DNA from: Blastocatellia bacterium
GTDB lineage: Bacteria; Acidobacteriota; Blastocatellia; UBA7656
Length of the DNA stretch: 64,000 nt
NCBI GenBank assembly: GCA_035315885.1
Contig: DATFXM010000058.1
Coordinates: 10,317-74,316, forward strand
Direction: 5' to 3'
The notes under the pieces: model-generated
What the model was told of the DNA's origin: nothing
Database searches by the model: none
Seen by the model: the letters and a program-made list of their open reading frames with translations, nothing else
Program-made: the position numbers and the translations under genes
Shown: positions 7,596 through 28,506 of the stretch, one piece after another
How positions within the stretch are numbered: position 1 is the first letter of the stretch
Layout of the letters: each line of letters begins with the position of its first letter

Positions 7596-7675
7596 TGTTG
7601 TAGAGTACGCCCTCCCTAGCTCGCCAACTGAAACACAGTGGACTTTTCGGATTTAAGACTGATTGGAGGATTCGC

Positions 7676-8152
7676 ATGGGCGCTGAAAAGGGTGAACTGG
7701 CCCCGGACTTCGAGCTGCCGAGCCATCTGGGGCAGAAGGTAAAGCTGTCCAGCTATCAAGGAAAGAAAAACGTATTGCTTGCATTTTATCCGTTGGCGTG
7801 GACTGGTGTCTGAACGATGCAGATGCCCTCGTACGAGGCTGACCTTGGCCGATTCGAGAGGCATGAAACCCAGGTACTGGGTATCTCAGTCGATTCAGTT
7901 CCCTGCAATGCCGCGTGGGCCAAGAGCCTCGGCGGTCTTTCGTACGACCTCCTGTCAGATTTCGAACCGAAGGGTGGCGTAGCGAGGATGTATGGGGTGT
8001 ACCGCGAGGAAGGCTACAGCGAGCGAGCCCTCTTTCTGATCGACAAGTCAGGCAAGATCGTCTACAAGGACGTTCACGAAATTGGAGACAAACCCGACAA
8101 CGAGGTGATTCTCAGTTTGCTGGAGACCTTGACTGAGGGGAAGAGGAGATGA
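7676..8152 (+). CDS. AhpE-like 1-Cys peroxiredoxin with in-frame UGA (7811-7813) at the peroxidatic position; candidate selenoprotein, otherwise a nonsense pseudogene
   Basis: ATG 7676 follows GGAGGA. The 45 codons MGAEKGELAPDFELPSHLGQKVKLSSYQGKKNVLLAFYPLAWTGV are followed by TGA, then continue in the same frame as track ORF 7817..8152 (TMQMPSYEADL...LLSDFEPKGGVARMYGV...). P-LAW-T-GV-[TGA] fits the Prx PxxxTxxC motif. Confidence 0.7.
7811..7813 (+). other. In-frame TGA; candidate selenocysteine codon
   Basis: Same frame as ATG 7676 and as ORF 7817..8152. It occupies the Cys slot of PxxxTxxC. Confidence 0.55.
7823..7864 (+). promoter_or_regulatory. Candidate bacterial SECIS-like stem-loop, 10 nt downstream of the UGA
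   Basis: AUGCC-CUCG (7823-7831) can pair with CGAG-A-GGCAU (7855-7864), giving 9 bp with one bulged A. An inner GGCU/GGCC helix has a 6-nt apical loop. Folded by eye only. Confidence 0.3.
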
Positions 8153-8255
8153 GGAGATGAGGAGAAGCGGCGAAGGGACGGGGAGAGACGCAGTGAACCA
8201 AAGGACCTTTCTCGGGTTCGCCTCTTCGCCTCATCTCCTCATCCCCTCATCTCCC
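8143..8255. repeat. Family-E element. (GAGGAGAT)3 plus a GGCGAAGGG arm, a spacer, and a (CCTCATCY)3 arm, between convergent genes.
   Basis: GAGGAGATGAGGAGATGAGGAGAAGCGGCGAAGGG (8143-8177) pairs with CGCCTCTTCGCCTCATCTCCTCATCCCCTCATCTCCC (8219-8255). The Prx TGA (8150-8152) spans the junction of units 1 and 2. The TlpA-like stop (8255-8257) abuts the other arm. Confidence 0.85.
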
Positions 8256-9265
8256 TATTCCTTTCCCAGTTTGCCTAGCAGGTCTCCGATCTTGCTCGAG
8301 AGTCTGGGACCCCTGAGTCCCGTAGCCTTAACGACGCCGTCCTGATCGATCAACACCGCATAGGGGATCGCACGTACCCCATAGAGTCTGGCAATCTTGT
8401 TATTCCATCCTCCGCCGTCGAAGAACTGAGGCCAGGTGATTCCCTGCTCTTTCATATAAGACTTGAAGGCGCGCTCGTCGCGGTCCAGATTCACTCCAAT
8501 CATCACGAATTGTTTGCCGTTGTACTTGCTCCAGATCTTTTTCACGTCGGGCATCTCCGCGCGGCAGGGCCCGCACCACGAAGCCCAAAAATCGAGCACC
8601 ACGACCTTGCCCTTGAAGGCCTCCAGCGACAGGTTCTGACCGTCGAACGACTTCACTTCGAACACCGGCGCCGACGGCTCTCCGGTGTTGCGCGGATTCG
8701 CGAGAATACCTCTGACCTCGCTCGCCTCCGGAGCGTTCGGTTGTTTTTCTAGGAAGGTCTTGAACGCCGCCTTACCCTCTTCGGCTTTGCCGACCTTGAT
8801 CAGCGCGTGACCCAGGTTGTAGTAGGCCTGGGCTATACTCCCCTGACTCATATCGATGGCGCGTCGAAATTCGCTGACTGCCTCGTCGTACACCTTCTTG
8901 TCACTCATCAGAAACAGTGCGACGCCCAAACCGTTATGCAAGCCGGCCTCGTTTGAGGCTTTCAACGCGATTCCCTCTCTGAATGCGCCGGCGGCTTCTT
9001 TAAATTTTTGAGCCTGCAAATAGCTGGAGCCGATCATCTCGAAACATTCAGGGCAGGTTCCCTTTCTCAGCTTGATGGCATTTCTGAATGAGCTTACTGC
9101 TTCGTCGAATCGAGCCGAATGCATTAGTTCGAGTCCGTGGAGAAACGCGGCCTGCGATTCATCTCCGTTCTCCATTGCCGGATTTCGAAACACTTCCTGG
9201 CCGTTCACAGAAGAACCGATTACGACCAGCGACAGAATCACAAGTCTGGCGACCATGAGCCTCAT
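8255..9265 (-). CDS. Secreted TPR-repeat / TlpA-like thiol:disulfide oxidoreductase fusion
   Basis: Signal peptide MRLMVARLVILSLVVIGSSVNG. TPR-like repeats in the N-terminal half. Thioredoxin fold with FWASWCGPCRAEMP (CxxC). Confidence 0.85.
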   Translation of the reverse strand: MRLMVARLVILSLVVIGSSVNGQEVFRNPAMENGDESQAAFLHGLELMHSARFDEAVSSFRNAIKLRKGTCPECFEMIGSSYLQAQKFKEAAGAFREGIALKASNEAGLHNGLGVALFLMSDKKVYDEAVSEFRRAIDMSQGSIAQAYYNLGHALIKVGKAEEGKAAFKTFLEKQPNAPEASEVRGILANPRNTGEPSAPVFEVKSFDGQNLSLEAFKGKVVVLDFWASWCGPCRAEMPDVKKIWSKYNGKQFVMIGVNLDRDERAFKSYMKEQGITWPQFFDGGGWNNKIARLYGVRAIPYAVLIDQDGVVKATGLRGPRLSSKIGDLLGKLGKE

Positions 9266-17771: not shown

Positions 17772-18248
17772 CTACTGCTGAGCGGCCTTGATGGCCTGTA
17801 TCACTTCGTCGTCACTGGGTCTGAAGATCGGGAACACCGATTTGCGATAACGGATTACTCCGTCGCGATCGATGACCACCACTGCTCTCTGTGCCATGCC
17901 GAGCAACGACTTCACCTTTAGAAGCCTTATCACTTCGCCCCGCTCGTCGGCCAGAAGCCGCTGCGGCAAGCCGTGATGCTCCGCGAATCCCTTGTGCGAC
18001 TCAACCGTGTCCACCGATACAGCCACAACTTCGGCTCCAGTAGCCTGGTAGTCGGCCCAGCGATCGCGCATGCTGCACATCTGTTTGGTGCAAACAGCGG
18101 TCTCGTCCTTCGGATAAAAGACGAGCGCTACTACTTTGCCGCGGTGATCTGACAGCCTCCACGTTTTTCCACTTTCGTCTTTGAGCTCGAAGTCCGGAGC
18201 TAACTCTCCCGGTTCGGTACCTATTGACCGTCCGCTGGCAGCGCTCAT
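17772..18248 (-). CDS. bcp: Peroxiredoxin, Bcp type
   Basis: APDFELKD.., FYPKDETAVCTKQMC (PxxxTxxC with a resolving Cys 5 residues later). The start was moved to ATG 18246-18248, which follows GGAGG. Confidence 0.85.
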   Translation of the reverse strand: MSAASGRSIGTEPGELAPDFELKDESGKTWRLSDHRGKVVALVFYPKDETAVCTKQMCSMRDRWADYQATGAEVVAVSVDTVESHKGFAEHHGLPQRLLADERGEVIRLLKVKSLLGMAQRAVVVIDRDGVIRYRKSVFPIFRPSDDEVIQAIKAAQQ

Positions 18249-18325
18249 TTGTCGTGACCTCCACGCGGCGTATTTCTCACGCGGCATTCTGCTGCCGCAC
18301 CACACAGAAATCAAGCGCGCCGGCC

Positions 18326-27918: not shown

Positions 27919-28506
27919 GTGGGAGCAAGACTTGCGTTGACATCGAGCGATGCTGAAATCGTTCAGCGTTGTTTGGAGGGTGACCAGCAGGCGTGGTCGG
28001 AGATCGTCCGCAATTTTTCGCGGAGGATCTACAATCTGGCTTACCGGTTCACATCGAGTCACGGCGCTGCCGAAGATCTCACCCAGGAGGTCTTCATCAG
28101 AGTCTATCGCTCGTTGAATCAGTATGACGCCTCGCTCGGCGATCTTTCGAACTGGTTGATGCGGTTGGCGCGTAACCTGGTGATCGACGATTACCGGAAG
28201 CGGCAACGCACTCCGACTTCGGCAGGCGATGACCTGGCGGAGCACGAGTACCACCTTCCCTCATCGAACGATAGCCCTCAACGGTCCCTTGAACGCCAGG
28301 AGCGCCGCCTTCAAGTACTGGCGGCGATAAACAAGCTGTCTCCAGACCTGCGCGAATGCGTCATCCTTCGCGATATCGAGGAGTTGACGTACCAGGAGAT
28401 AGTCGACCTTCTTCAGATACCGGAAGGTACCGTGAAGAGCAGAATCAACCGCGGCCGTATTGAACTGGCTAAGGTGCTGCGCAGGATGAAGGTTAATCCA
28501 GATTAA
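27919..28506 (+). CDS. ECF-type RNA polymerase sigma factor
   Basis: Region 2 AEDLTQEVFIRVY, and a region 4 helix-turn-helix LTYQEIVDLLQIPEGTVKSRINRGR. Confidence 0.88.
   Translation: MGARLALTSSDAEIVQRCLEGDQQAWSEIVRNFSRRIYNLAYRFTSSHGAAEDLTQEVFIRVYRSLNQYDASLGDLSNWLMRLARNLVIDDYRKRQRTPTSAGDDLAEHEYHLPSSNDSPQRSLERQERRLQVLAAINKLSPDLRECVILRDIEELTYQEIVDLLQIPEGTVKSRINRGRIELAKVLRRMKVNPD

Follow-up and report, generated by a model that had tools for sequence, protein, structure and literature searches.

An AhpE-like peroxiredoxin gene of a soil Blastocatellia bacterium with an in-frame UGA at the peroxidatic position: evidence for selenocysteine and for a possibly bipartite, long-range SECIS

Does the in-frame TGA at positions 7811–7813 of a 64,000-nucleotide stretch of Blastocatellia DNA end a short reading frame, or does it encode selenocysteine (Sec) in a peroxiredoxin, and, if so, which RNA element downstream directs the insertion? 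The stretch, referred to below as the window, lies on contig DATFXM010000058.1 (C58) of a 6.9-Mb, 97%-complete assembly (GCA_035315885.1). An earlier note, made from the letters of the window, had proposed the locus at 7676–8152 as a candidate selenoprotein gene. Three observations had been named there as speaking against this proposal, namely absence of the Sec machinery from the genome, no conserved structure after the UGA, and degraded orthologues; as described below, all of them came out in favor of a selenoprotein. We conclude that 7676–8152 is very probably one functional gene for an AhpE-like peroxiredoxin of a soil Blastocatellia-type acidobacterium, with Sec46 at the UGA and, less certainly, a two-part recoding signal. 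To judge from the machinery of the genome and the comparisons of related sequences, Sec is almost certainly the residue inserted at position 46.

The gene lies on the forward strand and is complete. Read directly from the sequence, the Shine–Dalgarno-like motif GGAGGA (7665–7670) is followed, after a gap of 5 nt, by ATG 7676; the TGA at 7811–7813 is in frame with this ATG, and the frame then stays open until the stop TGA at 8150–8152, giving 158 residues. Translation table 11 lists two separate open reading frames (ORFs) instead, 7676..7813 (45 aa) and 7817..8152 (111 aa). Both the sequence and its translation thus confirmed the layout drawn in the earlier note, in which a ribosome-binding motif, ATG 7676, and an in-frame TGA lead into the ORF 7817..8152.

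What protein would result from reading through this codon? The 158-residue product matched Pfam AhpC-TSA (PF00578) over residues 6–130, a span that includes the TGA, with 119.7 bits (E 9.6e-35; the curated cut-off is 26 bits), and Pfam Redoxin with 78.5 bits. The top seven sequence matches in the PDB were all Mycobacterium tuberculosis AhpE (Rv2238c; best E 1.8e-27). In the alignment to this enzyme, the TGA falls on the peroxidatic Cys45 (FPLAFTGIC vs. YPLAWTGVU) and R117 on the catalytic Arg116, which bears out the earlier placement of the TGA on the catalytic Cys of the PxxxTxxC motif. The active site of the window protein reads P39-LAW-T43-GV-U46 (PxxxTxxU), and its catalytic Pro, Thr, and Arg are all preserved and do not vary across an alignment of 13 homologues. 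An AlphaFold (AF2) model computed from these homologues reached a mean predicted local distance difference test score of 86.3 and a predicted template modelling (TM) score of 0.86, and the 12 best PDB folds found with it by Foldseek were all AhpE (TM score 0.84–0.89, 35–38% identity). Taking its nearest neighbors in sequence and in predicted fold as the guide, at 35–38% identity, the protein is a member of the AhpE-like peroxiredoxin subfamily. Furthermore, every NCBIfam match stayed under its cut-off: bcp scored 61.9 bits against 140, the PrxU equivalog NF040737 58.7 against 270, and the Prx-SUH equivalog NF045827 43.5 against 298. This places the protein among the AhpE-like peroxiredoxins and outside the named Sec-peroxiredoxin equivalogs.

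We found no signal peptide or other N-terminal extension on the window protein, which is therefore probably cytoplasmic. It also has a cysteine, Cys77 (VPCN, codon 7904–7906), 31 residues past Sec46, which many Blastocatellia and Pyrinomonadaceae forms share, as do some Cys forms, and which is Ser, Thr, or Ala in others. Its position presumably resembles that of the alpha-3 resolving Cys of some PrxQ/BCP enzymes and, by this analogy, a Sec46–Cys77 selenenylsulfide is possible in the subset of proteins that carry Cys77.

The TGA is conserved far beyond the window. Close orthologues (61–75% identity) were present in 26 of 61 family- and class-level genomes; 24 of these, from many genera, had TGA in the same column (FYPLAWTPVU), and the other two had TGT (FYPLSFTPVC). 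A scan of all GTDB species returned at least 567 relatives, and the best 80 of them, from Blastocatellia, Pyrinomonadaceae, and metagenome-assembled genomes of other Acidobacteriota, all carried TGA in this column. When the phylum was sampled evenly (401 genomes), a homologue was found in 43, about half of them Sec forms and half Cys forms, including Sec forms from other families at just 44–58% identity. Across Blastocatellia, Pyrinomonadaceae, and other Acidobacteriota, each of the 103 distinct Sec-form sequences keeps the TGA in one column, and the Cys forms have TGT or TGC there. The orthologues are therefore not degraded, and they include the Cys counterparts that the earlier note had suggested looking for by alignment.

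Assembly error was also considered as a source of the TGA and was rejected. Contigs from four sequencing runs, all of them soil DNA metagenomes (four samples, four studies), match the window across 7650–7950, or a portion of that range, with zero differences, and so the TGA is no artefact; one of the runs may be the assembly's own source, and the remaining runs are independent. One contig of these runs (run X1, contig record 2, overlapping window positions 7808–7839) belongs to another organism and carries a second Sec-form homologue (...LVFYPLDWTP-V-UGA...).

Is the organism equipped to insert Sec? The window itself holds no sel genes, as the earlier note had already observed, and a search of the rest of the assembly recovered all four components, each over its curated cut-off: a tRNA-Sec (72 bits, with the anticodon tca according to ARAGORN), selA (580 bits), selB (358 bits, with an open frame of 650 codons; contig C8, 16795–18681), and selD (370 bits, itself containing one in-frame TGA). 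The genome search therefore favors the selenoprotein.

Sec and Cys forms are intermingled in the maximum-likelihood tree of 73 proteins, whose well-supported branches force at least five changes between them. Two Cys lineages, P0022 on the one side and L043/L046/P0003/P0009/P0013 on the other, are nested in a supported Blastocatellia–Pyrinomonadaceae Sec clade and, judging by their position in the tree, look like Sec-to-Cys reversions.

Which part of the mRNA could direct the recoding? Two adjacent hairpins follow the UGA on the forward strand. Hairpin A (7823–7864) has the form AUGCCCUCG...CGAGAGGCAU with the apical part GGCU-GACCUU-GGCC; it starts 10 nt past the UGA and comprises a lower and an upper stem in the minimum free energy (MFE) fold. 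Hairpin B (7866–7884; core 7868–7882) is CCCA-GGUAC-UGGG, its core ACCCAG-GUA-CUGGGU closing a GU-containing loop. In 55 diverse Sec genes, a set de-duplicated at 90% identity, the two-hairpin layout was present in 51 MFE folds, and the gap between A and B was 0–6 nt in 49 of these 51.

Hairpin A was found in the MFE folds of all 55 Sec genes, starting 10–16 nt past the UGA in 47 of them, with its apical loop 25–30 nt past the UGA. Its lower stem covaries between clades (AUGCCC..GGCAU, AUGCCGU..ACGGUAU, UUCGGCG..CGCCGAA, and AUCCCG..CGGGAU), and its register shifts between clades as well, with the result that RNAalifold drops it from the 55-sequence consensus. Fixed-column versions were tried in three registers (S1, columns 33–37/42–46; S2, 31–37/45–51; S3, 30–34/39–43) and abandoned, as pairing reached ~80% in some clades and none of them was general. 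Because no fixed-column consensus exists for hairpin A, we examined it sequence by sequence against a null in which each protein was kept and its synonymous codons were re-drawn. The mean z was −2.37 in Sec genes, 67% of which fell below −2, compared with −0.30 in Cys genes.

Hairpin B, on the same null, gave a mean z of −3.08 in Sec genes (87% below −2) compared with −0.47 in Cys genes. Its motif occurs in 103 of the 103 distinct Sec sequences and in none of 11 Cys forms or of 4 exported paralogues (L048–L051, described at the end), and it is the sole consensus helix that RNAalifold keeps. The five core pairs are formed in 55 of 55 sequences, with GC/AU/GU exchange: pair 64–78 is G-C in 30 sequences, A-U in 23, and G-U in 2, with none broken, pair 66–76 exchanges C-G for U-G, and pair 69–73 exchanges G-C for A-U. 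In all 51 two-hairpin folds, the loop is a GUN triloop or an NGUNN pentaloop on a stem of 5–8 bp, and it starts 59–60 nt past the UGA. Furthermore, third-position entropy is 0.95 after the UGA compared with 1.19 before it. In L043 and L046, the members of the nested Cys lineage with DNA available, both hairpins stand at the null level. These results show that hairpins A and B are selected in Sec forms only, and the conserved structure that the earlier note had looked for after the UGA is thus present and specific to the Sec forms.

An outer stem enclosing both hairpins in a three-way junction (columns 11–14/85–88), which appears in some MFE folds, was dropped; by eye, columns 12 and 87, the two synonymous positions that this stem would join, showed no covariation. 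A partial B-like hairpin, UGCCAG-GUG-CUGGCC, was also noticed at the equivalent place in L149, a Cys form from another family; it may be what a Sec-to-Cys change left of a SECIS (selenocysteine insertion sequence), or the codons for C-Q-V-L-A may be complementary by chance.

The selD genes of these bacteria carry the same hairpin as element B. The selD of the window genome (contig C105:4422–5351, minus strand; L018) is itself a selenoprotein gene (SCSG-U-AAKL), as are those of most relatives (L170–L190), and six relatives have a Cys-form selD without the TGA. After its UGA, the window genome's selD has GCUCA-GGUUC-UGAGC. In the relatives (19 distinct genes) the element is CGCCCAGGUNCUGGGCG, with its loop ~33 nt past the UGA, and it is degraded in L182, the single Cys-form selD among the motif-bearing loci. 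This selD hairpin is the 15-nt hairpin B of the peroxiredoxin genes (GCCCAGGUNCUGGGC in Pyrinomonadaceae, ACCCAGGUNCUGGGU in Blastocatellia), and CGCCCAGGUNCUGGGCG and the peroxiredoxin hairpin alike encode the peptide AQVLG. Two mini-hairpins of 4 bp lie between the UGA and the SECIS hairpin in selD.

A covariance model built from selD alone and run on a set of 55 loci gave 20 matches at E < 1, and 19 of these fell on hairpin B of Sec-peroxiredoxin genes; none fell in the 11 Cys-form or 4 paralogue loci. The model's best match in the window as a whole, 28462–28489 on the forward strand (15.9 bits, E 0.02), lies in the 3′ end of a sigma-70-family gene (…IELAKVLRRM…) and was set aside as a chance match arising from AKVL codons, with no in-frame TGA nearby. 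When the whole genome was scanned for the CA-GGUN-CUG apex past in-frame TGAs, the credible coding matches were the peroxiredoxin gene and selD only, and the window genome therefore offers no wider sample of spacings.

How do the two hairpins compare with the accepted bacterial model? In the consensus for bacterial SECIS elements (bSECIS) of Zhang and Gladyshev, as summarized in a 2026 review (PMC13188914), an apical loop of 3–9 nt with the sequence N1-G-[G|U]-N-N2 sits on an upper stem of 4–16 bp, with 16–37 nt from the UGA to the loop; some genes fall outside the model (PMC13188914). The E. coli fdhF element is a 17-nt mini-hairpin 11 nt from the UGA, in which SelB contacts U17 and G23, with U24 beside G23 in the apical loop (PMC8659212). 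Hairpin B conforms to the bSECIS rules for loop and stem. Hairpin A lies within the spacing rule (25–30 nt) but has no conserved loop, and across the family no single hairpin combines the loop rule with the spacing rule.

It could be hairpin A that binds SelB, as a canonical SECIS at normal spacing, with B as an accessory that stabilizes the fold of A, pauses the ribosome, serves as a second SelB landing site, or is simply a by-product of the conserved peptide. Several points fit this reading: A starts 10 nt past the UGA and its apical loop at 25–30 nt lies inside 16–37 nt, close spacing is required in E. coli (PMC8659212), synonymous-site selection acts on A in Sec forms only, and the window loop GACCUU has G first. 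On the other hand, the apical loop of A takes 34 different sequences in the 55 genes; a G stands in its first two positions in 18 of the 55, and the G[G|U] rule fitted in 2. The shifting register and the missing RNAalifold consensus also argue against it, as does the invariance of B with its GU loop, a hairpin identical to the one that serves these organisms as selD SECIS. We regard A as the canonical element as an unlikely, though by no means negligible, solution. The stem-loop at 7823–7864, which the earlier note had drawn where bacterial SECIS elements sit, is thus real and selected in the Sec forms, but it is probably not the SelB-binding element. The invariant hairpin with the GU loop, missed in the earlier note, comes directly behind it at 7866–7884.

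In our preferred reading, which we hold to be probable, SelB binds B and not A, and A serves as a spacer. With somewhat less assurance, we lean toward a bipartite class of SECIS, in which a folded and obligatory spacer hairpin, placed where a normal SECIS is found, would bring a SelB-binding hairpin 59–60 nt past the UGA within reach. At 59–60 nt, the distance would be about double what the accepted bacterial model allows at most. Such an arrangement would probably have arisen because the peroxiredoxin peptide xQV[LV]G happens to encode the selD-type hairpin GCCCAG-GUN-CUGGGC.

How might the two parts work together? With a UGA in the A site, about 10–13 nt of downstream mRNA lie inside the ribosome. 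Hairpin A, starting at +10 to +16, could then remain intact at the mouth of the mRNA channel, and the folded A would act as a spacer that puts B beside the ribosome at about the canonical SECIS distance. SelB bound to the GU loop of B (a CA-GGUNC-UG apex, as in the selD SECIS of the clade) would deliver Sec-tRNASec, so that the UGA would be recoded by the genome's own SelB and Sec-tRNASec through a signal whose two parts lie within ~75 nt of coding sequence past the UGA. This model would account for the selection of A for stability and not for loop sequence, as well as for the invariance of B and the decay of both hairpins once Cys replaces Sec. In the protein, peroxide would oxidize Sec46 to a selenenic acid, which would afterwards be reduced again, by analogy with Cys45 in AhpE.

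Several observations weigh against this two-part reading. The window's hairpin A, with an energy of about −19 kcal/mol, passes loose bSECIS rules (loop GACCUU with G first, a spacing of 27 nt, and a 4-bp upper stem), and dinucleotide shuffling of 7808–7875 gave a z of just −1.16. Hairpin B lies at 59–60 nt, beyond the 16–37 nt of the model and far from the 11 nt of E. coli, and at this distance either the spacer idea is right or B has some other role. B also encodes a conserved peptide, [TA]-Q/H-V-[LV]-G, and part of its conservation therefore stems from the protein. Run on the window alone, the selD-only model, too short to reach significance there, gives B 11.9 bits (E ~0.4, rank 3), and an Rfam scan of 7650–8000 at E ≤ 10 returned no SECIS family and two chance matches only.

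Could the TGA nevertheless be a true stop? The locus would then be a pseudogene or a split gene with a 45-residue peptide and perhaps a separate product from ATG 7817, as the two ORFs of table 11 would have it. Public protein databases hold dozens of entries of 103–107 residues annotated as 'peroxiredoxin' or 'alkyl hydroperoxide reductase' (P0043, P0049, P0076, P0079, P0086, etc.) that are 73–83% identical to the post-UGA part, and the many 'peroxiredoxin' fragments of 104–107 residues that start past the TGA might seem to support such a product. We conclude that these short entries are C-terminal halves, that is, truncated calls of Sec-peroxiredoxin genes. Over the 36 codons 5′ of the UGA, the column entropy is 0.24, 0.20, and 1.19 at codon positions 1, 2, and 3, and there are 0 in-frame stops compared with 18 and 43 in the other two frames. 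This part thus evolves as coding sequence, which excludes a stop followed by a restart at ATG 7817. In addition, 103 distinct sequences from different families share the TGA column, none of the catalytic Pro, Thr, and Arg has been lost, a C-terminal fragment would have no active site, and the genome has the complete Sec machinery. A true stop is thus very improbable. Decoding of the UGA by other means, through near-cognate read-through as Trp or Cys or under a reassigned code, is more improbable still, because this gene and most of its orthologues end in TGA as a normal stop, so that the code is not reassigned, the UGA occupies the site of a redox-active Cys, at which selenoproteins as a rule exchange Sec and Cys (PMC13188914, PMC1794560), and the Sec-specific hairpins and the machinery would be left without explanation.

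The surroundings of the gene were also recorded. On its 5′ side lie a DinB-family gene, an aroD/aroE fusion, and a small ORF; the convergent 3′ neighbor (8255–9265, minus strand) encodes a tetratricopeptide repeat protein with a TlpA/ResA-like thioredoxin-fold domain, and a comparable WCGPC redoxin (L028, 125–556) adjoins the peroxiredoxin orthologue in at least one other genome. A long imperfect inverted repeat, with arms of 38–44 nt at 8134–8177 and 8206–8254 that are 82–87% complementary and are made up of GAGGAGAT-like units, begins in the final codons of the peroxiredoxin gene and occupies the gap before its convergent neighbor. This repeat probably acts as a bidirectional terminator or represents an element of the repetitive extragenic palindromic (REP) type. 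The C-terminal extension TLTEGKRR of the window protein reaches into this repeat and is missing from the orthologues. At four loci (L023, L025, L035, and L045), a typical 2-Cys peroxiredoxin of the AhpC/Prx1 type (FYPLDFTFVCPTEL ... GGLC) lies ~1 kb from the Sec-peroxiredoxin gene; no such neighbor stands beside the gene in the window. The window does contain a second peroxiredoxin, described earlier as a Cys-containing Bcp on the plus strand at 17772..18248: the protein is real and of the CxxxxC BCP type, but its gene extends over 17772..18314 on the minus strand.

What follows from these results? At the level of the protein they add little: a widespread cytoplasmic AhpE-like clade of soil Acidobacteriota would be a selenoenzyme. 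The truncated database records bear on annotation and on how selenium use in soils is estimated. If SelB does bind hairpin B, neither the 16–37 nt rule of the predictors nor the strict 11-nt rule of E. coli would be general, a folded spacer could stand in for linear proximity, and the failure of current SECIS models on some bacterial selenoprotein genes would be explained. With more than 100 variants, and with Cys-form revertants as controls, the family would provide a natural test system for the geometry of SelB, SECIS, and ribosome.

How does this system compare with known ones? Its nearest enzyme is AhpE (Rv2238c; PDB 1xxu, 1xvw, 4x0x), a 1-Cys peroxiredoxin of equal length with the same Pro, Thr, and Arg in the active site. 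The window protein differs from it in having Sec in place of Cys45 and in the additional Cys77, absent from AhpE. Acidobacteriota are not expected to have the mycothiol/mycoredoxin reductant that serves AhpE.

Sec-containing peroxiredoxins have been known since 2001. The selenoprotein family of this kind (PF00578, TxxU) has PrxU of Eubacterium acidaminophilum as its prototype (PMC13188914, PMC1794560), and 12 Sec-containing members were counted in 2006 (PMC1794560); the earlier statement that peroxiredoxins are among the known prokaryotic selenoprotein families is thus borne out by both papers. The window gene shares with this family the AhpC/TSA fold, Sec in PxxxTxxU, the existence of Cys homologues, and genomes with selA/B/C/D, and Sec/Cys interconversions on the tree are common to both. 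Unlike PrxU and Prx-SUH, the window protein belongs to the short AhpE-like subfamily, and the SECIS-type hairpin of its gene lies 59–60 nt from the UGA and not 16–37 nt. The gene itself is consequently a further Sec-peroxiredoxin, and the bipartite long-range SECIS is possibly the new part.

Closer at hand is the exported paralogue group L048–L051, an AhpE-like Sec-peroxiredoxin of the same phylum that is ~52% identical to the window protein and carries Sec in the corresponding column (AFYVLAFTGGU). Many relatives possess it, and no copy was found in the window genome at E ≤ 1e-20. Unlike the window gene, it has a signal-like N-terminal extension and no hairpin B; its SECIS is one canonical hairpin, GGCG-UAUCA-GGC-UGAUA-U-CGCC, with a bulged U and the loop ~24 nt past the UGA.

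Finally, in its RNA element the window gene resembles the E. coli fdhF type of SECIS in that the hairpin likewise lies in the coding sequence past the UGA, and the loop of B follows N1-G-U-N-N2 on a stem of 5–8 bp. The canonical spacing holds for the selD hairpin of the clade but not for hairpin B in the peroxiredoxin gene, where, in contrast to the canonical SECIS, the stretch between the UGA and B is taken up by a separate hairpin of ~40 nt whose loop varies.

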